From a virus (Duplodnaviria; Caudoviricetes), in the IMG/VR virus record IMGVR_UViG_3300047447_000196, positions 10,270-74,269 of that record: a DNA stretch of 64,000 nt, one strand, 5' to 3'. Below are positions 1-64,000 of this stretch, one piece after another (within the stretch, counting starts at the first letter, position 1; every line of letters starts with the position of its first letter). The notes under the pieces are model-generated. The model had not been told where the DNA came from, made no database searches, and saw only the letters and a list, made by a program, of their open reading frames with translations. Position numbers and translations under genes: made by a program.

Positions 1-109
1 GCACGGAGCTGTCGAACCAGTTGGTCGAGGCCGAGTAGGCGTCACGCGCCAGGGCGACCCAGTCGGGCGTGCTTTGCGCCGGCGCGGCGGTGTTGGTCTG
101 GTCGTCCAT
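1..109 (-). CDS. Probable portal protein, N-terminal 36 aa only (runs off the window edge)
   Basis: ATG at 109 gives MDDQTNTAAPAQSTPDWVALARDAYSASTNWFDSSV. It resembles portal N-termini of podovirus-like phages and lies downstream of terminase on the same strand. Not in the ORF track. Confidence 0.5.
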   Translation of the reverse strand, partial: MDDQTNTAAPAQSTPDWVALARDAYSASTNWFDSSV

Positions 110-118
110 GGGGCCTCG

Positions 119-475
119 TTAGCGGTCGAACACGAAGTCGCCGGCGAAGTTGGTCGCCAGCTGGGTGTACTGCGATTCGTTGAACTGGCCCCGGGACAGG
201 CGGAAGCGCTCGAGGATCTCGCCGCCGGCGCGGATCACGTCCTTCCTGAACTCGGACGCCGAGTAGATGTCCACGAGTTTCAGGCGGTAGCCCCACTGGC
301 CGGACAGCATCAGGTCGTGGATGTTGGCCACGCCGTTCGGGCCGTCGACGTTGATCGCCCACAGGTGGCCCGGGTAGTGGCTGTGCAGCGTGTCGGCGAT
401 CTCCTTGGCGAGGATCATGTCGTGCGCGCTGGTCGCCATGGCGCTGTCGTCCAGGCCGACGAGGATTTTGCTCAT
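119..475 (-). CDS. Hypothetical phage protein (118 aa) upstream of the putative portal
   Basis: Clean ORF with GC-rich codon usage, co-oriented with the structural genes. Confidence 0.75.
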   Translation of the reverse strand: MSKILVGLDDSAMATSAHDMILAKEIADTLHSHYPGHLWAINVDGPNGVANIHDLMLSGQWGYRLKLVDIYSASEFRKDVIRAGGEILERFRLSRGQFNESQYTQLATNFAGDFVFDR

Positions 476-493
476 GGGGGGTGTCCTAAAGGG

Positions 494-655
494 TCAGTCG
501 TCGTAGAAATCCGGCTCGGTCTCGCTCTGGATCAGGCGAGCCTTCTCGTAGTCGGACAGCCACTGGTATTGCTGGAAGGAGTACAGGGCGCGGATGGAGT
601 CGGGCAGCGCCTGGTACTCGCGGTAGACCAGGCTCGATTCGTTCATGGCTTCCAT
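494..655 (-). CDS. Small hypothetical protein (53 aa, MEAMNESSLVYREYQALPDSIRALYSFQQYQWLSDYEKARLIQSETEPDFYDD)
   Basis: Read manually; the start abuts the stop of the 1389-aa ORF (translational coupling). Confidence 0.7.
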   Translation of the reverse strand: MEAMNESSLVYREYQALPDSIRALYSFQQYQWLSDYEKARLIQSETEPDFYDD

Positions 656-3600
656 CTACACCACCGTGATCGTGTGGTTCAGGGCGTTGTAGCCGGTCGC
701 CGCTTCCCACAGGCCGGTGTTGGCCAGCCGGATCGCGTAGGCCGGGTTCGCGGCGAGGGTGGCATCCGCATCCGGCAGCGCCAGGAACAAGGCGTAGCTG
801 CCCGCCGCCATCCCGGCCGGCAGGAGCAAGGTCTCGTTCACGTCCGTGGTCGTGCCGGCCAGCCAGGTCCGGGGGTCGGTGCCCAAGGCCAGGCGCGTCT
901 CGGCGCCCGTCGTCGTGTTGCGCAGCACGAGGTAGACGGTGCGGCCGGAGACCGGGGCGGCGAACCCGCTGTTGTTGACCGAGAACGCCACATTGATGCT
1001 GGTGCCGCGGGTGCCGACGGTGGGGTAGCTGCCGGTCGTGAGGGCCAGGCGGTAGCCGAGGCGCTTGCTGATCGTCGCGTAGTCGCCGCTGTCCTTCCAC
1101 GACTGGATGACGAGATCCTGGTAGCCGGAATTGATGAAGGTCCAGTGGAACCGGGTCATCTCGGCGATGGCCGTCGCGCCGCTGGATCTCGGCTCGTTGT
1201 AGGTGCAGGTCTCGCCGCCCATCGGCACATAGAGGGTGTCGGCGGCCAGGAAGGCTTCTTCGGTCGGCTGGTCGTAGTAGGTGCCGGAATCGTCCGGGCC
1301 GGACAGGAAACAGTCGTTGAAGTGGCCGACGCGGGAGCGCGCGCTGCCGTCGAACGCGGTGCTGCTGGAGACCGGCGTGTTGCCGGTGTTGTACATCTTG
1401 ATCCACGGCTGGCGCACCTGCACCCAGCGGTGCGCCGGCATCACGGCCAGGGCCTTGTCGACCACGGCCTTGCGCAGCTGGCGGTTGGCGTCGGACAGGT
1501 TCGGCGGCCACGAGTCGGCGCCGAAGTTGTTGGACCCCTGGAATTCGCCCCAGCGTCCCACGAAGCCGGCCTGCATGCCGAAGATCACGTCGTCGTTGGC
1601 GGAGAGATATGGCGCCAGCTGGTCGAGGTGGCCCTGGATGCGGGTGAGCGTGGCGTCGGCGGTGTCGGTCGAGGTGTAGGCGAACCGGAGGATCGCCTTC
1701 ATGCCGAGCGAACGGATCGAGTCGAGGTGCGACTGGAAGGCGTTCAGGAACGTGGCATCCAGCGCGGCGGTCTTGTACGAGGACAGGTAGGCCTGGTACA
1801 GCACCAGGCTCATGTTCTGGGCCTTGTACTGGTTCAGGTTCGCTGCCGAAAAATCGCCGGTGTGCAGCAGGTGGACATACAGGCCGCGTTCCGGGTTGGC
1901 AAAATCGGCGGTGCTGGCGGTGTAGGTCACGCTGCTGCCGGCGCTGCTGGCGACGATGGCGGCCTGGACACTCTGGGCCTGCTTCGTCATCGCCAGGCCG
2001 CTGCTCGATTTCGCCACGGCGGCCTGGGCGCGCTGGCCCTGCTTCGTCGTGACGTTCGACAGGTTCTCGTAGCTGCCCAGCAGCGCGGCGCGCTGGCCCT
2101 GCGTCGTCGCGGCGCTGGCGCTGATGCCGGTGCCGCCCAGCAGGGCTGCACGCTGCGCCTGGCGGGTGCTGGCGGTGCTCGGGGTGGCCGTGATCGCCAG
2201 CGCGCCGGTCGACGACTGGCGGTGGTTCGTCTTGACGGTGAGATCCAGCAGCGGGGCCTTGGCGGTCTGCGCGAGGCGCGGCACCACGGCGAACTGCGCG
2301 CCGTAGCCGTAGTTCGGTTTCGTCGGGCGCGACTGGAACTTGTTCCAGGCGGTCAGGCCGCCCGGATAGCCCGCGTCGACCGTGAAGGCCAGCGCCGGCT
2401 GGTAGTCGGCCGCGAAGCCGACCGTGGAGTCCGGGTAGCCGTCGATGTCGCCCGGCAGCAGCGGCGAGCCGGCGGTGGCGAGGCGCTGCGGCGAGTCGCA
2501 GGGGTACTGCGCCTGGCTGGCCGGGATCGTGAACTGCCAGCACTGGGCCAGCGTCGGGAACATCGGCGCGGACGAGGTGGTCTTGACGCCCAGCGAGTAG
2601 GCGCAGGAATCCTGCACGCAGATCGCCGGGTCGAGCATGCGGCCGACCTGGAATTTCGCTTTCCAGTCCAGCAGGCGCTTGGCCTCGCTGTTCCCCAGCA
2701 GCTCGACGCCGTGGCCGATCGACATGGTGAAGAAGTCGTCCTGCCAGCAGGCCAGGCCGTTGGCGCTGCCGCCGTTGATGTTGTAGGCCAGCGCCTGATC
2801 CTCGATCACGCCCAGCGGGTTGCTGTTGCCGTCGACGTACTTGGCGACGTACCAGGCGATGTTGTCGGCGTAGCAGGTGGTGAAATGCGACTTCAGGTAG
2901 TGGTCGTCCGGCGTGATCGCGGCGGCCTGCGCGATCGTGCGCATGCTCCATGCCTGGCCGCGCACCTGGTCGGGGTGGACCAGCGACTTGCCGAACTCCC
3001 TGTAGTACGGGTTCCCGAAGTACATGTCGTAGGTGGCGAAGAACTGCAACTGCTCCAGATAGAAGTAGTCGCCGCTCAAGAGGTACGGCAGGTAGCAGAT
3101 GCCCGGCTGGTGCGCGCAATCGACCACGCCCTGCGTGACGGTGGTCAGGTCGGGCAGCTTCTCGTTCTTGCCGGTGGCCGGGTTGAGCGCATCGCCGGGG
3201 TTGCCGAGGATGCAGGCGTACGGGAAGTTCCTGGTCGACAGCGGCAGGCCGCGGCCCGGCCCGCTGCTGTCGTCGCGCCGGCAGATCGGCCAGGAACCGG
3301 CAATGTCGCCGGCCGCCAGCACGATCGCCTTGGCGCGGCGGTCCATGGTGAGGATCGCGGCGACGTGGGTGTCCGGCATGATGCCGATGTCGCTGCGCCC
3401 GCCGGTGGTCGGCATGTACGGCGTGAAGCGGCCGAACTTCATCGGCTCGTAGGTGCCGCCGGTGAGCCAGGTGTCGTAGCTGGCCAGCTCGCTTTCGGGG
3501 AAGGTGATGCTCTGGTCGTAGTTCGGGACCAGTTTCGACGCGATCAGGTAGGCGGTGTCGTGGCGGACGTGCAGGGTCGGCGCTTGCCCGATCCAGAACG

Positions 3601-4825
3601 TCTTCTTCCAGCGCCCGGTCGGCGTGTGGGTCAGCCCCGTCTTGCTGTAATAGGTGGTCGCACCGGCCTTGAGCGTGACGTCGTAGGTGATGTCGGTCGT
3701 CGACAGGTAGGCCTTGGTGTGCTCGACGGTGGCGTCGACGCGGACCTGGCCGCTGCTGAACACGCGCACCGAGAACTGGGCGGTCAGGGTCGGGTGCGGG
3801 CCGGCAGCGCCGACGAACGGCACGTTGAAGATGAAGTCCGAGGCGACCGGGCCGGCGAGCCAGGTGTCGTAGGCGGCGCCGGCGCAGCTGGCGGTCCAGG
3901 TGGCGCCGGCGATGACGAGCTGGGCGACCGGCAGCGTGGCCGGCATGGCGACCGCAGGCAGGCCCGGGGGAGAAGCGGCGCGGCGGATCGACAGCGTCTG
4001 CGAGCTGGATGCGGCCAGACTCGGCATCACGCCGCACAGGATCGCGTGGCGCACCGAGCCGTCCGCGTGTTTCGCCTTGACGGTGAACTGGGCCGGGACG
4101 CTGGTGCCGTCCGGCTGCACCAGGGCGACGTTCGCGCCCGCACTTGGGAGGTGGCCCGAGGCGAACGCATGGCCGAGGTAGAACGGCGCGTTGGTGACAG
4201 GCGTGGCGGCGGTGTTCTCGATCTTGAGCGTGGTGATCTCGCTGCCGAGCGGGATCGGGTCCTCGCTGCCCGGCAGCTTGCCGTCGATTCCCATCACGCT
4301 TGCTGCGTACTGGGCCTGGCGGGTGGTCACGGCGCCGGCGATCGGCGGGTTGGCGCCGTTGAGGGCGATGCCGACCTGGGTCTTCTGCGCCTGGCGGCTG
4401 GTCGCGGTGCTGTTGGTCGCCAGGTTCTCGCTGGTGATCGTGACCTGCAAGGCGCTGTGCTGGCGCTGGCGGGTCGCCACGTCGGCGTCCAGCTGCGGAT
4501 CGACACCATCGACACCGAACACGGCGGCGACCAGCTGGGCCTGCATGGACGCGGCGCTGGCGTCGGTGACGATGTTCTCGCTGGTGACGGCGGCGTCGGC
4601 GGCCACGAACTGCACCTGGCGGGTGACGACGGAAAGCGTCAGTTCCGGCGGCAGGTCGTCGCGCGGCGCGTACAGGGTCGAGTTGACGTCGGTGACGAAG
4701 GTGCGGCCGCCGAACCCATAGGCGAGCACCGGCCGCGCATCGAAGTTGGCGGCGGGATCGGCCATCCCGACTTCCTCCGACCACAGGCGGGTCGAGAAGC
4801 TCGGAATGGTGGGATCGTTACTCAT
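656..4825 (-). CDS. Large virion spike/depolymerase-like protein (1389 aa): TxQxQ repeats, PL26/PcRGLX-like lyase-type region, C-terminal DUF4874+DUF4832 glycoside-hydrolase-like region
   Basis: PFYLGHAF..G..P..Q..DGSVRHA resembles the PcRGLX-type N-terminal barrel. NPERGLY, LRFAY, QAGFVGRWGE, GHFNDCFL, GGETC and RLGYR resemble DUF4874/DUF4832. Lies in the structural gene block. Confidence 0.7.
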   Translation of the reverse strand: MSNDPTIPSFSTRLWSEEVGMADPAANFDARPVLAYGFGGRTFVTDVNSTLYAPRDDLPPELTLSVVTRQVQFVAADAAVTSENIVTDASAASMQAQLVAAVFGVDGVDPQLDADVATRQRQHSALQVTITSENLATNSTATSRQAQKTQVGIALNGANPPIAGAVTTRQAQYAASVMGIDGKLPGSEDPIPLGSEITTLKIENTAATPVTNAPFYLGHAFASGHLPSAGANVALVQPDGTSVPAQFTVKAKHADGSVRHAILCGVMPSLAASSSQTLSIRRAASPPGLPAVAMPATLPVAQLVIAGATWTASCAGAAYDTWLAGPVASDFIFNVPFVGAAGPHPTLTAQFSVRVFSSGQVRVDATVEHTKAYLSTTDITYDVTLKAGATTYYSKTGLTHTPTGRWKKTFWIGQAPTLHVRHDTAYLIASKLVPNYDQSITFPESELASYDTWLTGGTYEPMKFGRFTPYMPTTGGRSDIGIMPDTHVAAILTMDRRAKAIVLAAGDIAGSWPICRRDDSSGPGRGLPLSTRNFPYACILGNPGDALNPATGKNEKLPDLTTVTQGVVDCAHQPGICYLPYLLSGDYFYLEQLQFFATYDMYFGNPYYREFGKSLVHPDQVRGQAWSMRTIAQAAAITPDDHYLKSHFTTCYADNIAWYVAKYVDGNSNPLGVIEDQALAYNINGGSANGLACWQDDFFTMSIGHGVELLGNSEAKRLLDWKAKFQVGRMLDPAICVQDSCAYSLGVKTTSSAPMFPTLAQCWQFTIPASQAQYPCDSPQRLATAGSPLLPGDIDGYPDSTVGFAADYQPALAFTVDAGYPGGLTAWNKFQSRPTKPNYGYGAQFAVVPRLAQTAKAPLLDLTVKTNHRQSSTGALAITATPSTASTRQAQRAALLGGTGISASAATTQGQRAALLGSYENLSNVTTKQGQRAQAAVAKSSSGLAMTKQAQSVQAAIVASSAGSSVTYTASTADFANPERGLYVHLLHTGDFSAANLNQYKAQNMSLVLYQAYLSSYKTAALDATFLNAFQSHLDSIRSLGMKAILRFAYTSTDTADATLTRIQGHLDQLAPYLSANDDVIFGMQAGFVGRWGEFQGSNNFGADSWPPNLSDANRQLRKAVVDKALAVMPAHRWVQVRQPWIKMYNTGNTPVSSSTAFDGSARSRVGHFNDCFLSGPDDSGTYYDQPTEEAFLAADTLYVPMGGETCTYNEPRSSGATAIAEMTRFHWTFINSGYQDLVIQSWKDSGDYATISKRLGYRLALTTGSYPTVGTRGTSINVAFSVNNSGFAAPVSGRTVYLVLRNTTTGAETRLALGTDPRTWLAGTTTDVNETLLLPAGMAAGSYALFLALPDADATLAANPAYAIRLANTGLWEAATGYNALNHTITVV

Positions 4826-4946
4826 CTAGGTCCTCTGGAATGGGCAGCGGCTTGGGTGGCGGCGACTTGGGCGGCAGGCTGTCCAGCCAGGCCACGAAGT
4901 CCGGCGACGGCTCGAACGGCGCGGGTGGGAACGCGCCGTCCGCCAT
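4818..4946 (-). CDS. Possible small proline-rich protein (42 aa)
   Basis: ATG overlaps the stop of the upstream ORF; the stop overlaps the start of the 1389-aa ORF. Confidence 0.35.
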   Translation of the reverse strand: MADGAFPPAPFEPSPDFVAWLDSLPPKSPPPKPLPIPEDLDE

Positions 4947-5206
4947 CACATCCCCCTGCCCTTGTGCTTGGCGTGGGCCGGGATTTGGTTGGCCTGGTTG
5001 TGGGTGTCGGTGCGGACCACGCCTCTAGCGGTCGGCACGCTCGGCACCTGGCGGCTGGTCTTCGGCACTGGCGGACGCGCCATCGGCGACGGCGCGGCGC
5101 TTGGTGCCGGGACGGCAGCCGGACGGGCAGCCTTCGGCGGCAGCGGCGGCGGGTTCATGGACGGCACTTGTTCCGGCTTGGCGACAGGCTTGACGAACTT
5201 CTTCAT
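4946..5206 (-). CDS. Pro/Ala/Lys-rich hypothetical protein (86 aa, MKKFVKPVAKP...)
   Basis: ATG at 5206 preceded by GGAG; it is the C-terminal part of track ORF 4946..6235. Confidence 0.55.
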   Translation of the reverse strand: MKKFVKPVAKPEQVPSMNPPPLPPKAARPAAVPAPSAAPSPMARPPVPKTSRQVPSVPTARGVVRTDTHNQANQIPAHAKHKGRGM

Positions 5207-5260
5207 GGGAGGTCTCCGAAAGTCTTGACAGGTGGTAACGAACCGCGACAAACTGGCGCG

Positions 5261-6499
5261 ATGGATATCCAAAAAGAAACGGAACGGGCCGAAGTCCTGC
5301 TGCCGGCCCAGCTCGACGACGATGTGCTGCGCTACGTGATGGAGTGCGCGCACCTGAACAACCCGGACGGCGCGCGCCTGGTGAAGTCGATCCACCTTTT
5401 CATGCACGAGGCGCTGCGCACCAGGCCACCCGAGCCGCAGTACCACGCCACGCTGCGCGGCATGGCCGATTGCATGGACATGGTCTGGCGGGAGCTGATC
5501 GAGGCCGGGGTGATCGACCAGAAGGTGGCGCCGATGTTCGTGGCCGAGGCGGTGCTGGCCCGGCTGGATGGTCTGCGCAACGAAATGCTCGTCGTGCAAC
5601 GTCGCCTCGCCGGCGAGACCCTGCGCGCCGGTCTGGCCGAGGCGCGCGCCGCGTCGAAGTCGAAGGAGTGCATCGAGCTGCGCGAGCGCATGGCGGCAAG
5701 GCCGGCGATCCCGGCCACGCCGGAGCAGGCCATCGCCTTCATCGGCAACCAGTGCGAGGTGCGCGAGGATGCGGTGCCGCTGGACCGGACCCGCTTCCAG
5801 CTCACCGTCCACGATCTGCTGTCTGCGTTCCGCTGGTGGTTCCACGATGACGTGGCTGACGGCGCGATCTACGAGGCGGTGTCGCGCCGTGCCGATCCGG
5901 CAGCGCATGATGCGGCCGTCGCCGAGTCCATGGCCGTGCTGTCTAATTCCGCCGAATTCGACGGAATTAGAATGCCTACAGGCCGGGACCAAACCGCTGT
6001 TCCGGTGGCGACCGGAGCCGTTGAAACCCGCATGGATACTGGCTTCCAGCCTCTGCCAGAGGGTGGGCCTAATTCCCCCGAATTCGAGGGAATTAACAAA
6101 GCCGTGACTGTCACGGAAAAGGGGCCGTGGCAGGCCGAGGAAATCGCGCAACGGCTGCCCCCGCCCCGCGCTACGGTCGCTGCGGTGACGGCCGAGCTTC
6201 TGGCCGCCGGCAACGCGGTGGTCGAGCACTGGCACTCGCGCGACTGGAAAAAGCCGCCTACTGCGGATGTCATCGCCCGGCTGACGAGGGCGGTAGGCCG
6301 GGTCAAACGTGGCCGTGAGCTGTACACCTGCGTCGACAAGGGCGGCGAATACGAACTGGTTGGCGAGGCGAAGGGCGCCGGGACGTTGAAGACTTATTCG
6401 GGCTTGATCGTCTACCAGGACAGCATGACCGGGCAGATGTACTGCCGTTCGATGACGGACTTCGACAAGCGCATGCAGCGCATCAAGGAGACGCTGTGA
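5261..6499 (+). CDS. Mosaic hypothetical phage protein (412 aa); the last ~55 aa are DUF1653-like
   Basis: The real coding part of track ORF 74..6499 starts at MDIQKETE (5261). The C-terminus YTCVDKGGEYELVG...VYQD...YCRSMTDF resembles small DUF1653-type domains. Confidence 0.65.
   Translation: MDIQKETERAEVLLPAQLDDDVLRYVMECAHLNNPDGARLVKSIHLFMHEALRTRPPEPQYHATLRGMADCMDMVWRELIEAGVIDQKVAPMFVAEAVLARLDGLRNEMLVVQRRLAGETLRAGLAEARAASKSKECIELRERMAARPAIPATPEQAIAFIGNQCEVREDAVPLDRTRFQLTVHDLLSAFRWWFHDDVADGAIYEAVSRRADPAAHDAAVAESMAVLSNSAEFDGIRMPTGRDQTAVPVATGAVETRMDTGFQPLPEGGPNSPEFEGINKAVTVTEKGPWQAEEIAQRLPPPRATVAAVTAELLAAGNAVVEHWHSRDWKKPPTADVIARLTRAVGRVKRGRELYTCVDKGGEYELVGEAKGAGTLKTYSGLIVYQDSMTGQMYCRSMTDFDKRMQRIKETL
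5942..6095. repeat. Two related near-perfect palindromes inside the CDS
   Basis: TCTAATTCCGCCGAATTCGACGGAATTAGA (5942-5971) and TAATTCCCCCGAATTCGAGGGAATTA (6070-6095). Each has one mismatched pair at the same position; centres are 126 bp apart. Confidence 0.9.
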
Positions 6500-6960
6500 A
6501 CGTATTGTTTTTTGACATCGACGGCGTCGTGAATTCCGAGCGCAGCAGCCTGGGGCTGGGCGGCTACCCGCACAGCTTCGCCGAGACCGACATGCCCAAG
6601 TTCGACCACGTCGCCGTGGGCCTGATCCGCAGGCTGTGCCGCGTGACCAAGACGCAGATCGTGCTGTCGTCCACCTGGCGCATGTACCACACGCCGGGGC
6701 AGGTATCCGAGGCGCTGGACCTGCCGGTGATCGACAGGACGGCGGACCACGGCAGCTACGACACGCGGGGCAGCGAGATCGCGGCCTGGCTCGCCGAGCA
6801 TCCCGAGGTCGAGGCCTACGCGATCGTCGACGACGTGCCGGTCTGCGACGGGCATCCCGACCTGCAGGCGCGCTTCGTGCAGACCAACCCGATGACCGGC
6901 CTGTCTCTCGACGACTATCGCCAGCTGCGCCACCTGCTCGCCCCGGAGTGCTACGAATGA
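6496..6960 (+). CDS. HAD-superfamily phosphatase, HAD_SAK_2 (Swiss-Army-Knife RNA-repair-like)
   Basis: FFDIDGVVN motif I, IVLSSTWR, RGSEIAAWL, YAIVDD. Confidence 0.85.
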   Translation: MNVLFFDIDGVVNSERSSLGLGGYPHSFAETDMPKFDHVAVGLIRRLCRVTKTQIVLSSTWRMYHTPGQVSEALDLPVIDRTADHGSYDTRGSEIAAWLAEHPEVEAYAIVDDVPVCDGHPDLQARFVQTNPMTGLSLDDYRQLRHLLAPECYE

Positions 6961-7226
6961 ACTACGCTGATCACCTGCCCAATGGCTGGGCCAAAATCGC
7001 ACAACAACTGCAAGAGCGGCTGGAACCGTTCGTGGCTGCAGGAGGGCGTGTCTTGCAGGTCAAGGAAAAGTTCGGCGGCCTGCGCGTCTACACCGTAGGC
7101 CACGATGTGCCCGACCTGGACGACCTGTACGAGGCCGCCGAACAGACCTGCGTGGAGTGCGGCGCACCAGGCACCATGAGCACCCGGCACGGCTGGGTCA
7201 GCCCCCGCTGCGAGGAGCACACATGA
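6957..7226 (+). CDS. Conserved phage hypothetical protein (QVKEKFGGLRVY...CVECG family, 89 aa)
   Basis: ATGA overlap with the upstream stop; recognisable QVKEKFGGLR motif and a CxxC...C zinc finger. Confidence 0.8.
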   Translation: MNYADHLPNGWAKIAQQLQERLEPFVAAGGRVLQVKEKFGGLRVYTVGHDVPDLDDLYEAAEQTCVECGAPGTMSTRHGWVSPRCEEHT

Positions 7227-7492
7227 CGAGCCGCGCCATCGACGCCCACTACGACGCCGACTACGTGCTGACCGACGCCGACCGCGAGCGCGGCGCGGTG
7301 AAGATCGACCCGTACTTCGTGGCGCTGCAGTGGAGGACCGGGACCAGGGACCCGTCGGGCGTCCTGTTCCACCTGCTCAAGACCATCGCCCGCTTCGGCG
7401 AGAAGAACAGCCGGGAGCGCGAGATCCGCGCCCTGTACAAGAGCCTGCTGCGCCTCGCTGCACTGGAAGGCGTGGAGCTGGATCATGAGTGA
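7223..7492 (+). CDS. Hypothetical protein (89 aa, MTSRAIDAHY...)
   Basis: ATGA overlap, operon-like packing. Confidence 0.7.
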   Translation: MTSRAIDAHYDADYVLTDADRERGAVKIDPYFVALQWRTGTRDPSGVLFHLLKTIARFGEKNSREREIRALYKSLLRLAALEGVELDHE

Positions 7493-7793
7493 CCACGACT
7501 ACCAGCGCGCCGTCATCGGGATGGGCGAGATCCTGACCGGCGTGGTCAATGCCTGCCGGGGCGAGCCGCCCGAGGACTGTTCCTGGTCGACGCATGACGC
7601 TGCGGAGCTGGCCGGCAAGGCCGCGGCCGTGGCCAACGCGGCGCTGGCGGTCTACGGCCCTGATTCCGGTGACGCCGAGTCGGAGGCGTTCGTCCGCGCC
7701 CTGTACGACTGGCGTCTCGTGGTCGAGGACACCATCAGGCAGCGCGCCGAGCTGGACGAGCTGCGCGAGAACCAGGGGAGACTGGAACCATGA
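7485..7793 (+). CDS. Hypothetical protein (102 aa)
   Basis: Overlapping start and stop in the + strand cluster. Confidence 0.7.
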   Translation: MSDHDYQRAVIGMGEILTGVVNACRGEPPEDCSWSTHDAAELAGKAAAVANAALAVYGPDSGDAESEAFVRALYDWRLVVEDTIRQRAELDELRENQGRLEP

Positions 7794-8832: not shown

Positions 8833-8862
8833 CCCACTGCACGCCGAACCGAGGAATCGAGC

Positions 8863-9093: not shown

Positions 9094-9095
9094 GC

Positions 9096-13385: not shown

Positions 13386-13424
13386 GCGCCGCCCCAGCGG
13401 GCTTTGTATGGAAAGGAGCTACCG

Positions 13425-15368: not shown

Positions 15369-15372
15369 CCAT

Positions 15373-51939: not shown

Positions 51940-51942
51940 TCC

Positions 51943-54551: not shown

Positions 54552-54570
54552 TGCCCCGCTCCCTTCCTGT

Positions 54571-55759: not shown

Positions 55760-58700
55760 TCAGTCCTCGCCGTCGGCGAACGCCCCGGCCTGGCGCGCAT
55801 CCATCCCGCGCTTGACCGGCAGGTACAGTCCATCTTTCGCCTGCAGCCGGTGCTGCAGGCGCGAGCGGATCGCGTGCTGCAGGTGCAGCCCGGCGATGAC
55901 CCGGTTCGGGTGCGCCTGGTTGAACGCGCGAATCGCTTCCATCTCCTCGGCCGGGCTTTCCTTGGCCAGCATCTTGCGCGCGTACTGGTCGAGCAGCTGC
56001 TGGCGCCGGCGCTGCAGGGCCAGGTCGCGGTCGTAGACGGCCGCCTTGGCCTCCTGCTTCTCGCGCACCGGGCCGCTCGAGAAGCCCAGCACCTGGCTCG
56101 CGTAGTCCCAGCCGTCGATGTCCTCGTCGATCATGATGCCGTTGCGGTCCTTGGCCCCGCCCTCGATGGCGTAGCGCCTGCCGCGCGCTGGCCCCTTGAG
56201 CACGGCCGGCAGCGCCGTCTCGACCGCGCGGCCGGTGTCGCCGCGGCCGTACTGCTGCAGCGCGCGCGCCCAGTTCGCGCCGATGCCGACCACCGGCCCC
56301 AGCAGGCCGGCCAGGAAGGCGTCGAACGAACGCTCGCCCTGTAATCCTTCCTGCAGGTCCGGGAAGATCAGGTGATCGGCGCCGACCCTGCCCGAGATAT
56401 CGAACGGGGTCGGGCGCGTGATGCCGTGCGCCAGCACCTGGCCGGCCGTCTCGCCGAACAGGTCGGCCAGCAGGTTGCGCAGCGCGATCTCGGCGTCCCA
56501 CGGCTCATCGTCGCCGCCGCCGATCATCGAGGCCGCGCCCAGCAGGGTCGTCACCAGCGGCAGGCCGAGGATGCCGGCCGCCAGCGCGTGCGTGACCACC
56601 AGGCCCGCCAGCGTCTTCTGCGCCTCGCGGTCGCCCTTGAACGAGCGCGCCGCGTTCCGCGCGAACGTATAGATCAGGTTCTGCGCGTACTGCTTGAACA
56701 GGAACACCACCTGCGCCACCGGCCCCTGCATGAAGCGGGGCCTGTTTCCGGCCGAGTAATCGAAATGCGCCGCCTTGGTCAGCTCGACCGAGGTGCGGTA
56801 GGCCTCCTCGTAGCTCTGGCCGTCCTGGCGCGCCAGCCGGAACGCCGCCAGCGCGGTCGCCTGGCGGTTGAAGCGCTCGGCGTGGTGGAACATGAAGGAC
56901 GCGACCTTCATCACCTTGCGCATGTTGCCGCGCAGCTGGTTGTCGCGCCCCGAGGCCACGCCGGCCAGGTCGTGCACCATGGTCAGGTCGATCAGGCCGG
57001 TGCGGACCCAGTCCTCGTAGGCGCGCTTCTCGTCGCCGCTGAGGATCTTGCCCATGTCGTTGTGGCCGGACATCGCCTGCCTGGACGCCTCGACCAGCGC
57101 GGCCGCGGCCTGCGTGTAGCCGAACTTGCCGCCCAGCAGCGGGTAGGCAACGGTCGGGGTCTGCAGCAGGTTGGTCAGGGCCGAGGCCGGGGAGGCGCCC
57201 AGGAACCACACGAAGCCGAACGAGGTCAGCTTGGTCGACAGCGCATTGCCCTTCGGGTTCAGGTAGTTGTCGTGGCGCTTGGTCATCTCGTCGATGACCT
57301 GCTGCGCCTTGACCTGGTCGTAGTCCGGGTCGGTGCTGTTGTCGTTGGCGATCTTCTGCATCCGCTCGAGCACCTCGGTCAGCTGGTCCGAGTAGTTCAG
57401 CTTGGCCAGGTAGGACACGCCGTGGAACATGTGGTGGGCAAAAGCCCGGCGCGCGTCCTGCGAGAAGCCCGGCATGCCGGTGCGGTGGATGCCGCTCTTG
57501 GCCCAGGACAGGTCCGGCATGCTCATCAGGATCAGCTGGTTGATGGTGTCCTGCAGCGACGGGTCTTTCACCCCGGCGTCGTCGAGCGCGGCGAACAGCT
57601 TTTTCACGAAGCCGCGCGAGACCGAATCGCGCGCCGCGTTGTACTCGGCCGCCTTCATCACCGGCATCACCTGGTAGCCCTTCTCCGGCGGGTAGGCTTT
57701 CAGCAGGCGCGCGCGGGTTTCCTCGGCTTCCTGCAGGGTCTCGGCGCGCTCGACCGCCTCGCGCACCACGGCCTGGCCGGGCGGCGGGTTCTTGCCGACG
57801 AAGCGCACGGTGACGATGTAGTCGCCGAAGCGCGCCAGCGGGAAATAGATCCCCTTGATCTGCTTGCCGAAGAATTCCTGTTCCAGCCGGCGGATCAGGG
57901 CGGCCCGGCCCTTGTGCGCGGTCAGGTTGCGCTTGATCCGCTCCTGCACCGCCTTCCTCACGTTGGCGTAGTGGGACTCGTAGGCGGTGGCGGCCGCGCT
58001 GAACACCTTCTGCGCCTCGGGCGACAGGGCGTTCCAGCGCGCGTTCAGCTCCTTCCACTTCTTGTAGTCGTCGCCGGTGACGTAGCCCTTCCGCGGGTCG
58101 ATCTCGGCGCGCGTGCTGTCATGCGCCAGCGTGGCCATCTCCTTCTCCTGCGGCAGCTTGGCCCAGTCGTCGACGATCCTGTCGGCCATGCTGCCGCCCT
58201 CGGTCTTCTCGGCGTCCATGCGCGCGGCCAGGTCGCTGTAGACCTGCATCATGTTCGGCTGGGTTCCCTGCGGGAACAGGTGGCCGTACAGCTCGGTGAG
58301 CTGCAGTCGGCCCAGGAACTGCAGCAGGACCGAACGGTAGTGCCCCAGCATGTTGCCCAGCTTCGTCACCGTGTTGCTCTTGATGGTGCCGCCGACCTGG
58401 CGCGCCAGCTGCTGCGGGGTGGCGCGCGACAGGCGCAGGCTGCCCGGGTCGCTGGCCACCGGCAGCGGGCCGTTGTCGCCGTTCTGGCGCGAGAACAGCG
58501 GCAGGCCGCCTTTTACACGCTCGCGCATGGCGTCGGTGATGTCGATCGCCGGCTGGGTGCTCCAGCCCTTGCTGCCGTAGTAGTTGTCCTTGCCGAAGTT
58601 CGAGTCGGTGGTGACGCCATGGCTGGAATAGCGCAGCTGGCCATCCTCGTCGACGTACTGGGTCACGCCGGGGCGCGGGTCGTACGGTTCGCTGTGGATG

Positions 58701-61700
58701 ATGTCGGCCTGGTCCATCCGGCCGCCGCCCAGCTGCTTCGTCAGGGCGTTGACGGCGTTCGGCACGATCTTGTCGTAGAACGCGCGCATGCCGTGCCCGC
58801 CCAGGTTCAGGTTGTCGCCGGCGAAGCGGGCGCGGCTGAACGGATCGGCCTTGATCTGCTCGACCGCCTTGCTGGCCAGCTCCTTGCCCATCAGGTTGAC
58901 CAGGTCACGGTCATCGTTGGCCCAGGTCTCGTGCGGCTCGCCGTCCAGCAGCGTGATGTCGACGCGGTAGCCCGGTTCGTCGACCGCCTTCTCGACCTCG
59001 ACCGCCTTGACCTGCTGCGACAGCTGGAAGCGGTCGACCGCCTGCTGGCCGGTGACGAACGAGACGCGGTCATAGCCGTTCTCGGCGGCGTAGGTCAGCA
59101 CGCGCTTGAGGGCCAGCGTCAGCCAGGCGTCGGTCTTGCCGACGAACGGCGCCTGCGGCACGGCGTTCGGGTTGTCGATCAGGCCGACCAGGTCCGGGTT
59201 CTGTTCGCGCCAGACGGCCGCGCTCGTGGTCGGGTTGTCCTTCATCCACTGCGCGAAGCTGCGCTTGGCTTCGGCCACGCGCGGGTCCCTGAAGCCGTCG
59301 CGCTTGCCGATCTGCCCCCAGTCGCTCTGCAGCTCCTCGACGTGCAGGACGCGGCGGCCATCGCTGTCGACCCGGTCGTTGAAGCGGATGTGCGCCAGCA
59401 CGTTTTTCTCGTACCAGTGGTTCGAGTGGAACACGCTGCGCGCGCGCTCGTCCTCCTCGAGCACTTCTTCGTTCGTCAGCCGGTTCAGCTTGTCGAGTTC
59501 CTCCGCGGTCAGGTCGGCCTCGGTCCAGCCGGGACGACGGAAGTTGCCCGCGACGTGCCAGCCGTACTTGTCGCTCAGCTCGCCGATGTAGTCGTCCAGC
59601 TTGAACGACGGCTCGCGCAGCGGCAGCGTCAGCAGCAGCTCGGTGTAGTTCTGGCCGCCCGGCAGCGTGTAGGCGTTGTACCTCGTGCTGTTCTCGTTGT
59701 TGCGCAGGTATTCCCGGGCTTCCTCCCGGGTCATCCCTTCGCCGGCCTCGTCGTCGAGAAGGACGTCGATGTCGTCCTCGGTCGGCTCCCGGCGCATCGT
59801 TTCCGTGACGCGCACGCCATTTTCAGCCAGGTAGTCGAGCAGCTCGGCCTTCGTGAACTTCTCCTTCGGGCGCGTATTCAGGTAGTCGAGGATGCCGGAC
59901 CAGTAGATCTCGTCCTGTTTCACCCCTTTCTGGGCGAAGCCGCTGGCCATGATCGTCTCGGCCCACTGCAGGGCCGGGGCCGACTTCATCGGCAGCTGCT
60001 CGATTCTCCGCGCCAGCTGCGAGTACCAGTGCGGCTGCGCGCCGTCGGAGAAGCGGGCGGCCTCGAACTGGCCGAAGGTGCGCGGGGTGCGCTTGCCCTC
60101 GACCGCTTCGCGTGCCCGCGCCAGCAGGGCCATGGTCTCGGCCTGGCTGTGGCTTTCGATCCAGTCGGCAACCCGGTCCAGGCCGATCGCGCGCAGGGCC
60201 TGCTGCACCAGCCCGATGAACTTCTGCCAGCCCTTGATCTGCTGGCCGCTGCCGACGATGTCGGCCAGCGCCTCCTCGGTGGCGCGCTCGAGCTTGTAGC
60301 CGAACGTGGCGGCCTGGTATTGCGCGGCCTTGGCCAGCGCCGGATTGATCAGGCGCAGGCGGTTCAGCTCCTGCTTGAGCGCTTTTTCGCCCAGGATCGC
60401 CGACAGGCCCAGGTGGCCCAGCGCCTCGTGCGCCAGCACGAACTGCACCTCGCCGGCGTGCGCCAGATTGTCGGCCACCAGGAACGCCTGGCCGCGCCAG
60501 GCGGCGCCGCGGGTGTCGGGCTTGGCCTCGAACGGCAGCTCGTTCACCGACTGGACCACGGTCACGCGCGGGGCGTTGTGCCAGCCCTGCAGGATCGGCG
60601 CGACCACCCGCTGCACGTCCGCTTTCGCCATGCCCTGCGCGGCCGCGCCGCGCGAGAACTCGGCCTCCTCGTCCTCCTTGCCCTCGCCCGGCTTGCCCAG
60701 CTCGACCAGCGGCTTGTATTCGAGCAGTTTCGTGAGCAGCTGGACGCCCTTCTCGCCGGTCGGGATGAAGGTGCGCTCGGCCCAGTTGATGCGCTCGACG
60801 AACGCGCCGAGGTTGGTCAGCATTTCCCGCTCGGAACGGTTGTACTGCAGGGACTGGCCGGTGATCTCGATCCGGTTGTCGTTCGAGACGCGCACCTTCT
60901 GCAGCAGCCAGCCGTTGGCCAGGATGCCGCGCTGGCCATCCATCAGGCGCTTGAGCACCTCGGCCGCCGGCAGTTTCGACAGGTTGTTGCCCACGCCCAG
61001 GTTCTTGAGGGTCTGGTCGAGGTTGCGTTCGGACACCACGCGGCCGAGCATGCGCTCGCCGTCGACGGTCTGCGTGCGCACCACGCGCGGGTCGCCCGGC
61101 AGGCGGTCCCAGATCGGCAGCAGCATCCCGGTCAAGAGGTGCGTCTTGTCGGTGTAGGTCGGCGCGGTGGCGGCGATCTCGGCCTCCCAGGCCGTCTTGG
61201 CCTGTTCCGGGGTCAGCTTCTGGAACGCGGGAATCGCGCGCTCGGCCTCGCTCTCCTTCAGGTGCGGCCGCATCCGGTCGAGCAGGCGCCGGAAGGCGTC
61301 ACGCTCGGGGCCGGGCGGCCCGGCCTCGATGGTCTGCTCGACCCGGTCCAGGCCGCGCTGGGCCAGCAGGCCGGCCAGGCGGGCGTCGGTGACGTCGACC
61401 GGCTTGCCGGCGGCCGTCACGTAGCTTTCGATCATGATGTCCGACGTCGGCCGGGTGTAGACGGCGGCCTGGATCTTCTTGTTGACGGTGGTCTCGCCGC
61501 GCGCGCCCTTGAGGATCTTGTCGACCTCGTCGCCATAGCGCAGGCCGCCGGTGGTGCGGATCTGCACCCCGCGCGAGATCACCTGCCCGGTTTTGGCGTC
61601 GGTCGAGGTCCCGGTCCGCGCCAGCGCGAACACTTTATTCGTGCGCTCGTTGCGGAAGAAGCCCAGGAAGCGCTCGCCGAAGCTGGCCGCGTGGCGCTGC

Positions 61701-64000
61701 GCCTCGTCGAAACGGTTGATGTGGGTCGGGTGCGTCAGTTCCAGCTCGACGTAGCGGGTCCTGGCGCCCGTTCTCTTGTCCTCGAACACGACCTCGTCGC
61801 GCAGTTTCTCGACCTTCTCGGCGCGCAGCGTTTCCATGCCGGCGTCGAAGGTGCCCTGCGCCTTGGCGCGCGCGATCGTTTCTTCGAGCCGCTTGAAGAA
61901 CTCCTCGAACACCTCGTCCTGGCGCTTCGTTTCCAGCGACAGCAGGCGGTTCAGGAACTGCGGCACCTCGGGCAGCTTGCCGTAGTTCAGCGCCCCGGTC
62001 TCCGCATTGATCAGGCCGTTCAGGCCGAGGGCGCGGGTGGTCTCGTGGAAGTTGAGCGCGGCCTGGCCGTTGTACATGTCGACGAACAGGTTGTGCAGCG
62101 CGTCGGAGGCGTACTGGGATTCCAGGTTGTCGGTGGCCGAGAACATGCCCTGGCCGCCGGTCTCGCGCTGGCCCTTGGTCAGCGCGCCCAGCTGGTCCAG
62201 CCTGCGCGCGATCGACGAAATAAAGCGCTTCTGCGCTTTCAGGTTCGTGGTCGGCAGCACGTAGTGCGGCTGGTTCGCCTCGTTCGAGCGGTGCGTGCGG
62301 CCGAAGCCCTGCACCGCGTTGTTGGCGCGCCAGCCCGGCTGCACCAGGTAGTGGATGCGGCGCCGCTGGTTGGCCGCGTTCAGGTCGGACTGGAACGAGT
62401 AGCCGGTGCCGCCGGCGTCGGAGAACACCAGGACCCGCTTCTTGTCGGCCATGAAGGCGTCGGCGTCGGCCGGCACCGAGGATGCCGGGCGCTTCTCCTC
62501 GACGACAGTAAAACCGCCGGTCCTGGTGTCCTGCACCTGGACGAAGCGGCGCTTCCTGCCGGTGATCTCGGCGACGTTGTTGGTGCCGAACGCGCGCAGG
62601 ATCATATCCAGCGGGTTGTCCGGCACGCGGATCTGCTCGAGGTTCTTCACCAGCTGGTCGCGCAGCGCCACCATTTCCTTGTTGAACACCGGGTTGCCCT
62701 TGGAGTCGACCACCGGGCGGGTCTGCTTGTGGCCCTCGGCGTCGGTGTACTCCTCGTGCTGCTGCACCGGGAAGCTGTTGCGCACGTAGTTCAGCAGCGT
62801 CTCGCGCGGGGTGAAGTCGAAGTCCTCGGCCACCGCGTCGTCGTCGTTGGCCAGCTTGGCGGCCTGTCTCTCCTGCTCGGCCTCGTTGGTATTGACCAGC
62901 TGCATGACCACGGCGTGGCCCTCGGCCAGGTCGCGCTCGGCGGCCTCGACGATCGACGGCATCTGCATGGCCGTGATGACGTGGTTGAAGAAACGCTGGT
63001 GGCTGCCCCAGAACTGGGCCAGCGCCGCGCTTTTCGCCTTCGGGTTGTCCTTCTGGCCGGTCGCTTCCAGCGCCGTGTCGATGTTCTGCAGGACGGTCTG
63101 CCAGGCGCGCGCCAGCTCGTTGTAGATGTCGGTCTGCAGCGGGGTCAGCTCGTGCTCGAGGCGGTCATACGTCACGCCGTCGAACGACAGACTACGCGCC
63201 AGGTACGAACCCTGCGCCTTCATGTCGCGCGAGACCAGTTCCATCGCCGCCACGCCGCCGGATTCGATGCCGCCGATGAAATCCGTGACCTTGGCGAACG
63301 CGCTGCCCTCGCCCCACAGGCCGAGGCGGGTCGCGTAGCCCAGGTTGTGGACCTCGGTGGCGCCGGTGGCCGAGACGTAGACGATGCGGGCGTTCGGCAG
63401 CAGGCGCTGCAGCTCGACGCCGGCGAGCGCCTTGGCGGCCGGCTTGGTCTTGCCGCGCTTGCCCTTCCGCTCGACCACGTTGCCCATGTTGTGGGCTTCG
63501 TCGAAGGCGATCACGCCGTCGAAGTCCTTGCCCAGCCAGTCGACGATCTGCTGCAGGCGGCTCTTGGTCGTCTGCGTCTTGCCGGCGGCCCTGTCCTTGG
63601 CCGACAGCTCGCCCATCTTGAGCGTGTCGTAGGTCGTGAACAGGATGCCGCTCCTGGCGTCGATCGGCGCGCCGGCCTTGATCTTGTTGTGCGCCATGAG
63701 CACGTCGGGGTTGCCGGACACGCCGGCAAAATCGCGCTTGGCGTCACGCAGCAGGCCCTGTTTCGCACTCAGCCAGACCGCCCTGGTGCGGCCCTGTCTC
63801 TGGTTGTCGAGCAGGATGCCGGCGATCTCGCGGCCCTTGCCGACACCCGTCCCGTCGCCGATGAAGAAGCCGCGCCGTTCCTTGTCGCCCGGCAGCATCT
63901 CGCTGTGGGCCTGGCCGGCGTAGACCACCGCCTCGAGCTGGGCCAGCGACAGCAGGCCCTTCTCGATCACGGTCTTCGGCAGGTTCGGGGTGTAGTTCGG
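55760..64000 (-). CDS. Giant polyvalent virion/ejection protein (>2746 aa, 5' end outside the window): Strawberry-notch helicase, zincin metallopeptidase, uncharacterised module, PLxRFG domain, helical C-terminus
   Basis: GFFIGDGTGVGKGRE, FDEAHN, YVSATGA, AEITGRK, FSDAGGTG, QGFGRTHRSN (AAA_34/Helicase_C_4); AHEALGH...EEALAD; YFPLARFGDY. The frame stays open from 63970 to 64000. Confidence 0.9.
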   Translation of the reverse strand, partial: PNYTPNLPKTVIEKGLLSLAQLEAVVYAGQAHSEMLPGDKERRGFFIGDGTGVGKGREIAGILLDNQRQGRTRAVWLSAKQGLLRDAKRDFAGVSGNPDVLMAHNKIKAGAPIDARSGILFTTYDTLKMGELSAKDRAAGKTQTTKSRLQQIVDWLGKDFDGVIAFDEAHNMGNVVERKGKRGKTKPAAKALAGVELQRLLPNARIVYVSATGATEVHNLGYATRLGLWGEGSAFAKVTDFIGGIESGGVAAMELVSRDMKAQGSYLARSLSFDGVTYDRLEHELTPLQTDIYNELARAWQTVLQNIDTALEATGQKDNPKAKSAALAQFWGSHQRFFNHVITAMQMPSIVEAAERDLAEGHAVVMQLVNTNEAEQERQAAKLANDDDAVAEDFDFTPRETLLNYVRNSFPVQQHEEYTDAEGHKQTRPVVDSKGNPVFNKEMVALRDQLVKNLEQIRVPDNPLDMILRAFGTNNVAEITGRKRRFVQVQDTRTGGFTVVEEKRPASSVPADADAFMADKKRVLVFSDAGGTGYSFQSDLNAANQRRRIHYLVQPGWRANNAVQGFGRTHRSNEANQPHYVLPTTNLKAQKRFISSIARRLDQLGALTKGQRETGGQGMFSATDNLESQYASDALHNLFVDMYNGQAALNFHETTRALGLNGLINAETGALNYGKLPEVPQFLNRLLSLETKRQDEVFEEFFKRLEETIARAKAQGTFDAGMETLRAEKVEKLRDEVVFEDKRTGARTRYVELELTHPTHINRFDEAQRHAASFGERFLGFFRNERTNKVFALARTGTSTDAKTGQVISRGVQIRTTGGLRYGDEVDKILKGARGETTVNKKIQAAVYTRPTSDIMIESYVTAAGKPVDVTDARLAGLLAQRGLDRVEQTIEAGPPGPERDAFRRLLDRMRPHLKESEAERAIPAFQKLTPEQAKTAWEAEIAATAPTYTDKTHLLTGMLLPIWDRLPGDPRVVRTQTVDGERMLGRVVSERNLDQTLKNLGVGNNLSKLPAAEVLKRLMDGQRGILANGWLLQKVRVSNDNRIEITGQSLQYNRSEREMLTNLGAFVERINWAERTFIPTGEKGVQLLTKLLEYKPLVELGKPGEGKEDEEAEFSRGAAAQGMAKADVQRVVAPILQGWHNAPRVTVVQSVNELPFEAKPDTRGAAWRGQAFLVADNLAHAGEVQFVLAHEALGHLGLSAILGEKALKQELNRLRLINPALAKAAQYQAATFGYKLERATEEALADIVGSGQQIKGWQKFIGLVQQALRAIGLDRVADWIESHSQAETMALLARAREAVEGKRTPRTFGQFEAARFSDGAQPHWYSQLARRIEQLPMKSAPALQWAETIMASGFAQKGVKQDEIYWSGILDYLNTRPKEKFTKAELLDYLAENGVRVTETMRREPTEDDIDVLLDDEAGEGMTREEAREYLRNNENSTRYNAYTLPGGQNYTELLLTLPLREPSFKLDDYIGELSDKYGWHVAGNFRRPGWTEADLTAEELDKLNRLTNEEVLEEDERARSVFHSNHWYEKNVLAHIRFNDRVDSDGRRVLHVEELQSDWGQIGKRDGFRDPRVAEAKRSFAQWMKDNPTTSAAVWREQNPDLVGLIDNPNAVPQAPFVGKTDAWLTLALKRVLTYAAENGYDRVSFVTGQQAVDRFQLSQQVKAVEVEKAVDEPGYRVDITLLDGEPHETWANDDRDLVNLMGKELASKAVEQIKADPFSRARFAGDNLNLGGHGMRAFYDKIVPNAVNALTKQLGGGRMDQADIIHSEPYDPRPGVTQYVDEDGQLRYSSHGVTTDSNFGKDNYYGSKGWSTQPAIDITDAMRERVKGGLPLFSRQNGDNGPLPVASDPGSLRLSRATPQQLARQVGGTIKSNTVTKLGNMLGHYRSVLLQFLGRLQLTELYGHLFPQGTQPNMMQVYSDLAARMDAEKTEGGSMADRIVDDWAKLPQEKEMATLAHDSTRAEIDPRKGYVTGDDYKKWKELNARWNALSPEAQKVFSAAATAYESHYANVRKAVQERIKRNLTAHKGRAALIRRLEQEFFGKQIKGIYFPLARFGDYIVTVRFVGKNPPPGQAVVREAVERAETLQEAEETRARLLKAYPPEKGYQVMPVMKAAEYNAARDSVSRGFVKKLFAALDDAGVKDPSLQDTINQLILMSMPDLSWAKSGIHRTGMPGFSQDARRAFAHHMFHGVSYLAKLNYSDQLTEVLERMQKIANDNSTDPDYDQVKAQQVIDEMTKRHDNYLNPKGNALSTKLTSFGFVWFLGASPASALTNLLQTPTVAYPLLGGKFGYTQAAAALVEASRQAMSGHNDMGKILSGDEKRAYEDWVRTGLIDLTMVHDLAGVASGRDNQLRGNMRKVMKVASFMFHHAERFNRQATALAAFRLARQDGQSYEEAYRTSVELTKAAHFDYSAGNRPRFMQGPVAQVVFLFKQYAQNLIYTFARNAARSFKGDREAQKTLAGLVVTHALAAGILGLPLVTTLLGAASMIGGGDDEPWDAEIALRNLLADLFGETAGQVLAHGITRPTPFDISGRVGADHLIFPDLQEGLQGERSFDAFLAGLLGPVVGIGANWARALQQYGRGDTGRAVETALPAVLKGPARGRRYAIEGGAKDRNGIMIDEDIDGWDYASQVLGFSSGPVREKQEAKAAVYDRDLALQRRRQQLLDQYARKMLAKESPAEEMEAIRAFNQAHPNRVIAGLHLQHAIRSRLQHRLQAKDGLYLPVKRGMDARQAGAFADGED

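Follow-up and report, generated by a model that had tools for sequence, protein, structure and literature searches.

How does a tailed phage that carries a plasmid-type replication initiator beside a lambda-like switch persist in its host? The question is raised by a stretch of 64,000 nucleotides (the window, i.e., the whole stretch of DNA analysed), which covers bases 10270-74269 of IMGVR_UViG_3300047447_000196 (here G000), a single contig of 74,269 bp from IMG/VR. Our answer, which we consider likely, is that G000 derives from a temperate phage kept as a low-copy plasmid prophage, i.e., a phage-plasmid, and that the window holds ~65% (G000, about three quarters) of the ~99-kb genome of this uncultured temperate tailed phage. 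We infer plasmid maintenance from virion and plasmid gene sets in one element, from replication and partition sites that co-vary among relatives, from circular relatives free of an integrase, and from a divergent temperate switch. Genes were called by GC content at codon positions (GC3; the genome GC is 66%) and annotated with Pfam and PHROGs.

Homologs of the large terminase subunit (TerL) were found on 39 contigs in IMG/VR, at 50-91% identity, and on one contig from a Janthinobacterium metagenome-assembled genome (MAG); seven long relatives, fetched whole, form the comparison set. Circular maps were obtained for four of the relatives. G001 has a 5,276-bp terminal overlap of 99.9% identity, which leaves a unit of 98,898 bp, and in G005 the first and last 20 kb are strain variants of one another (75-88%), so that its unit is ~98.6 kb; G007 has an exact 127-bp end overlap and G004 a 130-bp one, each with a unit of ~101 kb. 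These maps (98.6-101.3 kb) are free of host DNA, and G000 is collinear with G001 over its full length.

The replicon and the partition and addiction genes of the window are as follows.

38684-40483, plus strand: partition cassette (parS copy 1, parA, and parB with parS copy 2 inside)
38684-38704: parS copy 1, a 21-nt palindrome 75 bp upstream of parA
38779-39591, plus strand: parA (AAA_31, 129.5 bits)
39548-40483, plus strand: parB (ParB_N, 55 bits)
39851-39871: parS copy 2, a 21-nt palindrome inside parB
44407-45486, plus strand: trfA, a plasmid-type replication initiator (PF07042, 65.9 bits, cut-off 22)
45456-46060, no strand: oriV, with eight direct iterons and one inverted copy, three DnaA boxes and an AT-rich tract
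51760-52308, plus strand: Phd-like open reading frame (ORF) of 59 amino acids (aa) and Doc toxin (Doc at 51943-52308; Fic/DOC, 44.3 bits, cut-off 24)

TrfA of G000 is 41% identical to that of the Herbaspirillum huttiense plasmid NZ_CP103873.1, most plasmid matches being at ~26%. PF07042 is carried by 53 of its 53 database relatives, and no TrfA homolog was found among 50,697 phage records. The iteron core is CGAAAACGACACACC; the eight direct 16-nt iterons lie at 45456-45632 and at 45814, mostly 21 bp apart and with the first inside the last trfA codons, and the inverted copy lies at 45762. The DnaA-box matches (45493, 45638 and 45675) fall within 190 bp and are the only three in the 64 kb (0.89 expected for the whole window), and the AT-rich tract, at 45640-46060, reaches 63% A+T. 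This plan is common to five relatives, each of which has 6-8 iterons at 21-bp phasing and an iteron sequence of its own, i.e., the iterons change together with TrfA. Initiation driven by TrfA and DnaA is predicted at this oriV.

The partition sites behave in a similar manner. The candidate parS palindrome, GGGTGTAATAGTATTACACCC, occurs exactly twice in the window (0.00 expected), and the relatives with parAB (G001, G005, G008, G006 and G016), in which trfA, parA and parB are syntenic, have exactly two copies each at the same two places. One position of the palindrome is A, T, G or C depending on the phage; the opposite half-site always has the complementary base, and the two copies always agree. 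Iterons and parS appear, from this comparison, to act as functional specificity determinants across the relatives.

TerL is 79-91% and the capsid protein 86-91% identical among relatives, TrfA only 38-52%. G001 and G016 share ~50 kb at ~99% identity; in contrast, identity is 71.5% between their trfA genes, the flanks of trfA cannot be aligned and the iterons differ. G004 and G007 are without TrfA and ParAB and have a different small ParA at the same place, where G004 also has a RepL-like winged-helix protein; such replacement is the pattern of conserved phage genes and variable plasmid genes that phage-plasmids show (PMC7969092). The diversification of replicon and parS looks like incompatibility avoidance. 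Selection on the specificity of replication and partition would fit plasmids that meet in one cell, and would be difficult to account for if the origin were purely lytic. The Phd-like ORF and Doc, homologs of which are absent from all seven relatives compared, seem to form a strain-specific addiction module.

The window also carries a temperate switch with its leftward operon, made up of the following features.

24577 to 24558, minus strand: terminator-like hairpin between the Q region and the first virion gene
25176-25694, minus strand: Q-type antiterminator (by fold comparison)
25893-26237, minus strand: Holliday-junction resolvase (phrog_190, 147 bits)
28162-29052, minus strand: primase, translationally coupled to the helicase (phrog_2249, 126 bits; GGGAGG site at its start)
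29052-30551, minus strand: helicase (phrog_16, 248 bits)
31710-32282, minus strand: Cro/YdaS-type helix-turn-helix (HTH) with a fused DUF4406, heading the leftward lytic operon (YdaS_toxin, 66 bits)
32283-32362: divergent control region of 80 bp, with a leftward sigma70-like promoter (32317 to 32290) and three direct CAAGC..CTTTAA repeats
32363-33037, plus strand: cI/LexA-fold repressor, likely start 32409 (HTH_3, 47.6 bits)
33057-33078, plus strand: the repressor's own strong terminator

In HTH profile the repressor comes nearest to P22 C2 and 434 (E 5e-10). Its AlphaFold2 model (predicted local distance difference test, pLDDT, 81) was matched by Foldseek to a lambda-186 repressor (2e-7), lambda cI (4e-5) and LexA (5e-5), with 186 also matched, and its C-terminal half aligns to LexA C-domains at template modelling scores of 0.68-0.71. 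The divergently encoded Cro-type HTH matches P22_Cro at 36.8 bits (cut-off 30.2) and its fused domain DUF4406 at 90.6 bits; the three repeats between the two genes are candidate operators.

The Q-type protein was recognised by its fold. Its sequence had no match among PDB sequences, sequence methods giving only a 32-residue zinc-ribbon match. In the Foldseek search with its model (pLDDT 76), the top seven of 350,542 chains were all lambda Q (E 4e-3, probability 1.0), and VIA-align gave Z scores of 9.7 (3.8 A, 125 residues) and 9.0 to lambda Q and 7.6 to AlpA, all others being at or below 2.8. Four cysteines (zinc ribbon) are invariant in 30 homologs. The model points to a Q-family antiterminator, for which antitermination activity is predicted, the hairpin at 24577 to 24558 being the candidate target. 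The leftward operon has the order cro, replication, Holliday-junction resolvase, Q, terminator and late genes, as in lambda. The element is lambdoid in control logic only; lysogeny based on an integrase and att sites was not found.

The original prediction, drawn from the window's letters, had named a TrfA-like initiator with iterons and DnaA boxes, parAB together with a resolvase and doc, and a cI/cro/Q circuit. Each of these was recovered: the initiator, its iterons and boxes as described; the partition, addiction and resolvase genes by their AAA_31, ParB_N, Fic/DOC and Resolvase plus HTH_7 matches; and the circuit at the level of fold for cI and Q and by the P22_Cro/YdaS match for Cro.

We propose that these parts may work together as follows. 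In the prophage state, the cI/LexA-fold repressor would shut the divergent leftward promoter. TrfA would bind the oriV iterons and, with host DnaA, open the AT-rich tract beside them; ParA and ParB, the latter on the two parS palindromes, would segregate the copies, and Phd/Doc would, in the G000 strain, kill cells that lose the element. Upon induction, the leftward operon would be expressed in its lambda-like order, i.e., Cro-type HTH, helicase-primase for lytic replication, Holliday-junction resolvase and Q-type antiterminator, and the Q-type protein would let RNA polymerase pass the terminator into the virion genes. The late operon would continue beyond the contig through virion genes and a polyvalent protein of ~7,000 aa, and then into the lysis genes.

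Several observations weigh against this plasmid-prophage reading. Virion DNA that is circularly permuted or terminally redundant also yields circular metagenome assemblies. In a sample of 401 Oxalobacteraceae genomes, a relative was found in one MAG only and in no isolate. The contig G000 itself is unclosed, a fragment and not a closed circle, and about 26 kb of the genome lie beyond it, in addition to the 10 kb of the contig outside the window. The repressor is also not a textbook one. Its Ser motif is NSGM in G000 (Gly at the Ser column) and DDSM in most relatives, with His or Ala at that column in two relatives, and at the candidate Lys position of the S24-like domain all family members have VRRL (Arg), where LexA has VKRL (Lys). 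The S24-like domain thus seems to be without its catalytic residues and RecA-stimulated self-cleavage is doubtful; the protein is possibly a non-cleavable cI-type repressor. Finally, lytic replication in phages can also rely on an initiator that binds iterons, lambda O being the classic case, so TrfA alone is no proof of plasmid maintenance.

This last point is the core of the best surviving alternative, which we regard as rather unlikely: the phage would be virulent or pseudolysogenic, TrfA/oriV would be its ordinary phage origin, ParAB would serve a transient carrier state or another role, and no stable plasmid prophage would exist. That no lysogen is known, the relatives being almost only free metagenome contigs, agrees with it. 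A separate helicase-primase in the Cro/Q operon, however, leaves TrfA free for maintenance, and a cI/LexA-fold repressor with its own terminator, a partition cassette whose conserved centromere has variable specificity, a Phd/Doc addiction module, and a replicon and parS that diversify as if to avoid incompatibility are all at odds with a purely lytic life.

A further alternative, i.e., that the element has decayed into a plasmid that retains phage genes, turns on the state of the virion and lysis genes, which are listed here.

1-109, minus strand: first 36 codons of a portal fusion protein of 1,101 aa (phrog_1216 portal, 80 bits)
within 1-6235, minus strand: 429-aa ORF and small virion genes
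656-4825, minus strand: 1,389-aa spike (DUF4832, 209 bits; DUF4874, 132 bits)
6496-9703, plus strand: second plus-strand island of small genes (GC3 gene call)
10694-12851, minus strand: small terminase subunit (TerS) and TerL (phrog_1206, 53 bits; phrog_38, 151 bits)
13404-19365, plus strand: plus-strand island of ~11 small genes inside the late region (GC3 gene call)
19406-24806, minus strand: tail and virion proteins (phrog_3758, phrog_11660, phrog_10304)
22216-24042, minus strand: 608-aa tail protein (C-terminal match to phrog_11660; atypical GC3)
52861-52896, minus strand: terminator-like hairpin, 52896 to 52870, followed by a T-run (11-bp stem, nine GC pairs)
52910-53305, plus strand: gene between the endolysin gene and the terminator
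53302-55598, minus strand: lysis region
53302-53736, minus strand: endolysin (Phage_lysozyme, 121 bits)
53733-54551, minus strand: homing-endonuclease-like ORF of 272 aa (phrog_314, E 5e-9; low GC3, 0.70)
54571-55056, minus strand: 161-aa hydrophobic, holin-like protein (by hydrophobicity)
55053-55598, minus strand: 181-aa protein with one transmembrane-like segment (by hydrophobicity)
55760-64000, minus strand: giant polyvalent protein, C-terminal 2,746 residues (AAA_34, 357 bits; Helicase_C_4, 287 bits; LPD39, 92 bits)

The portal fusion, capsid and adaptor genes lie outside the window on the left. With them, G000 has a tailed-phage set of TerS, TerL, portal, major capsid protein (MCP), tail proteins and endolysin, and the rest of the virion genes are found in the collinear G001. 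The terminase, fibres, lysis genes and giant ejection-type protein of the original prediction find their counterparts in the terminase, tail proteins, endolysin and polyvalent protein.

An element of this decayed or non-inducible kind, giving no infectious particles, strikes us as quite improbable. In its favour are the degenerate-looking catalytic dyad of the repressor and the homing-endonuclease-like insert in the lysis region. Against this, all large virion ORFs are intact, including ORFs of 7,099-7,199 codons in the relatives, and the identities of MCP (86-91%) and TerL (79-91%) over many independent contigs imply purifying selection. The homing-endonuclease-like ORF sits between the holin-like gene and the endolysin gene, has homologs in none of the seven relatives and is probably a recent mobile insert.

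We hold it very unlikely that the phage integrates by an enzyme that is unrecognised or encoded in the missing 26 kb. Two relatives are classed as "provirus" by IMG/VR, and the G000 contig is incomplete. We do not take the label as a sign of integration: each of the two records stops within phage genes, and host DNA is absent from both. IMG/VR lists G000 as a "linear" virus with a CheckV completeness of 74%. In the contig closure check its two ends share no overlap, minus-strand genes are cut at both ends, and a simple join leaves them out of frame by one base. The gene cut on the left is a phrog_399 structural gene; on the right it is the giant ORF, which is interrupted midway through its helicase domain (AAA_34 is matched from profile position 21). 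According to the complete G001, the ~26 kb absent from G000 hold only virion genes and the giant gene. The adaptor gene is completed there, the giant protein has its N-terminal ~4,450 residues there, and the other products are a head-closure protein and four virion proteins. Integrases of PF00589 are absent from G000 and from four about complete relatives (G001, G005, G007 and G008), which bears out the original remark that no integrase is present. A search for PF00239 found one accessory recombinase of 188 aa and nothing in the complete G001 and G007.

9804-10370, minus strand: small serine recombinase of the resolvase/invertase type, 188 aa (Resolvase, 131 bits, and HTH_7)

This recombinase is present in G005 and G008 and absent from G001 and G007, i.e., it is an accessory gene. 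A 22-nt inverted repeat that flanks it was considered as the border of an invertible segment; it is not conserved in G005 or G008 and is probably due to chance.

A chimera, made when the assembler joined a phage contig to a plasmid contig, is extremely improbable. G000 does come from a metagenome, and the G005 assembly plainly wraps around with two strains in it; yet six independent contigs, taken from different samples, share one gene order in which the plasmid module lies between phage modules.

Returning to the phage-plasmid as the preferred reading, the layout of its late genes differs from the original prediction in part. All late genes had been said to read leftward; GC3-supported islands on the plus strand, at 6496-9703 and 13404-19365, interrupt them. 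Most genes of both islands are conserved in close relatives, those at 13404-19365 in G001, G005 and G008, with PHROG matches of unknown function only. The giant and lysis genes had been said to read leftward to a terminator, and both the genes and the hairpin with its T-run are there, with the plus-strand gene at 52910-53305 intervening. A circular genome had been proposed in which the late operon wraps around outside the window. The wrap is seen in G001, where the giant ORF reads across the junction; closure by G000 is not, as ~26 kb are missing. A check of contig circularity, which had been suggested, likewise gave circular maps for the four relatives and none for G000 itself.

The giant gene, whose 5' end is cut by the contig end, sits between the virion and lysis genes. 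Full homologs are single ORFs of 7,199 aa in G001 (across the overlap junction) and 7,099 aa in G004 (2848-24147), i.e., ~22% of the genome. The domains differ between relatives: a Strawberry-notch-type (Sbno) helicase and LPD39 in G000, and InPase, ART-PolyVal and LPD39 in G001, in whose giant protein Pfam did not find the Sbno helicase. From the description of polyvalent proteins (PMC5512222) and its position in the late operon, the giant protein is probably packaged and ejected with the DNA. The 608-aa tail protein has homologs in none of the seven relatives compared and is likely a strain-specific receptor-binding protein.

The virion type is less clear. Sheath (PF04984) and tape-measure (PF10145) families were not found in five records, nor was any marker that would speak positively for a podovirus. 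By TerL the distant relatives are VpV262/SIO1-type phages, and the head-closure protein matches Pseudomonas "vB_PaeM" phages. The term podovirus-like, as used in the original prediction, draws only on the distant TerL relatives and the missing sheath and tape-measure matches and is unproven. In the virion region of G006, 61150-63610 is a tandem array of ~210-bp period whose copies are 71-83% identical.

G000 probably has its host among the Oxalobacteraceae, a guess supported by the circular plasmids of this family on which the closest TrfA genes lie. The Janthinobacterium MAG offers an observation of its own. Its TerL homolog (G017:C204:55169-57772), 74% identical, is split as residues 3-87 and 65-537 in one 903-aa frame; the split is due to an in-frame insertion of ~310 aa, possibly an intein.

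The remaining features of the window, most of them early or accessory genes, are given for completeness.

between the Q-type gene and the terminator-like hairpin, minus strand: 91-aa gene
between the Holliday-junction resolvase and Q-type genes, minus strand: 63-aa ORF
30552-31466, minus strand: 304-aa ORF
31309-31713, minus strand: HNH/Ref-like nuclease (phrog_1588/2321)
33291-36700, plus strand: rightward early genes
34209-35291, plus strand: exonuclease (phrog_5715, 208 bits)
35462-36097, plus strand: SSB (SSB, 130 bits)
36107-36700, plus strand: HTH protein (HTH_3)
43367-44379, plus strand: H-NS-like gene pair in tandem, just upstream of trfA (Histone_HNS, 33 and 38 bits)
46068-48314, plus strand: 748-aa protein beside oriV
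among the accessory genes of the rightward region, with Phd-like/Doc, plus strand: SLOG (YAcAr) protein

Several small genes lie between the primase and Holliday-junction resolvase genes. The H-NS-like pair might silence the element or modulate the origin. The 748-aa protein matches no Pfam or PHROG family and is kept in all relatives, including those without TrfA (29-51% identity). In the accessory region of G004, one of the TrfA-less relatives, an HlyD-family membrane-fusion-like gene lies at 36501-37727. Rfam gave no family at gathering score in the window. ARAGORN called a tRNA-Ser(GCT) of 92 nt at 59008-59099 on the plus strand; it is antisense inside the giant ORF, has no Rfam support and is probably spurious.

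What, then, would such a family mean? Beyond the phage-plasmid reading of G000, we put forward tentatively, as a possibility somewhat less secure than its alternatives taken together, that the family is a natural system in which incompatibility determinants diversify on an otherwise stable phage genome that also delivers, with its virion, a polyvalent protein of ~7,200 aa with varying domains. We are led to this by TrfA-iteron units that are swapped between 99%-identical backbones, by the four-state parS and by the replaced TrfA/ParAB cassettes. If true, related plasmid prophages would frequently co-reside and compete, and incompatibility-driven divergence of phages would be directly testable. 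The ~2.7-kb trfA-oriV unit and the parAB-parS cassette, with its natural specificity variants, would be reagents for tests of incompatibility and host range. The comparative evidence for working plasmid functions, i.e., co-varying iterons and a four-state parS discriminator, is unusually clean, and replicon swapping is visible at near-strain resolution. Most known phage-plasmids come from enterobacteria, Acinetobacter, Vibrio and a few other cultured hosts, and this family would extend them to environmental Betaproteobacteria. The G000 family does not reveal a new mechanism.

Megablast gave zero matches in 50,697 phage and 72,556 plasmid records; TerL and portal matches are at most 43% identical and come only from unrelated Vibrio, Streptomyces and roseophage-type phages; no plasmid record carries a TerL of the G000 type; and no phage of this family with a TrfA-type replicon is described in the literature searched. 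Together with TrfA on Oxalobacteraceae plasmids and the relative in the Janthinobacterium MAG, this supports the earlier suggestion of an undescribed group in Oxalobacteraceae-like hosts. A comparison with phage-plasmid collections had also been called for, and core genes shared with the P1, N15 and SSU5 groups were not found by megablast, TerL or portal.

The closest known logic is that of P1, which has an iteron-type initiator with DnaA boxes, ParAB/parS, Phd/Doc and a separate lytic replication module. P1 also has large anti-restriction-type virion proteins, i.e., DarB (PMC5512222). G000 shares this logic, large virion-type protein included, as far as genes alone tell. The parts differ: RepA in P1 and TrfA in G000, C1 in P1 and a cI/Cro/Q-type switch in G000, which is also without Cre/lox. 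No P1-type sequence is among the TerL or portal matches, and the sheath family was not detected.

With RK2/RP4 (IncP-1), G000 shares the Pfam family of the initiator and the origin plan, i.e., clustered and isolated iterons, DnaA boxes and an AT-rich tract. RK2/RP4, however, is a conjugative plasmid, whereas the G000 replicon resides in a phage, belongs to a distant TrfA subfamily and has 21-bp iteron phasing. The closest TrfA genes, 41-42% identical, are those of NZ_CP103873.1 from Herbaspirillum huttiense and of a 54-kb circular plasmid contig (G218:C16), both from Oxalobacteraceae. NZ_CP103873.1 has the same parA-parB-...-trfA order as G000; it is conjugative and F-type, encodes a MobF relaxase and has no virion genes, and similarity between its ParA/ParB and those of G000 is not detectable.

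Lambda, P22 and 434 resemble G000 in the repressor with HTH and S24-like domains, the divergent Cro-type HTH, the Q fold and the operon order. In contrast to them, G000 has no integrase or att, its Cro is fused to DUF4406, its repressor dyad looks degenerate, it has a helicase-primase in place of O/P, and its virion genes are unrelated. Iyer et al. 2017 (PMC5512222) defined the class of polyvalent proteins, which occur in phages and in conjugative elements; the giant protein has families of this class (LPD39; in G001, ART-PolyVal and InPase) and lies in the late operon, and it stands apart from the class in length (~7,100-7,200 aa, ~22% of the genome) and in a domain content that differs between close relatives.

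The described phage-plasmid groups are P1, N15, SSU5, AB, pMT1, pCAV, pSLy3 and pKpn (Pfeifer et al. 2021, PMC7969092), a study in which TrfA/IncP is unmentioned and few phage-plasmids are podoviruses. These groups are the same kind of element as the G000 family and have the same pattern of conserved phage and variable plasmid genes. The kind of element, the replicon type, the switch type and the polyvalent class are thus all known; the family and the combination are new.

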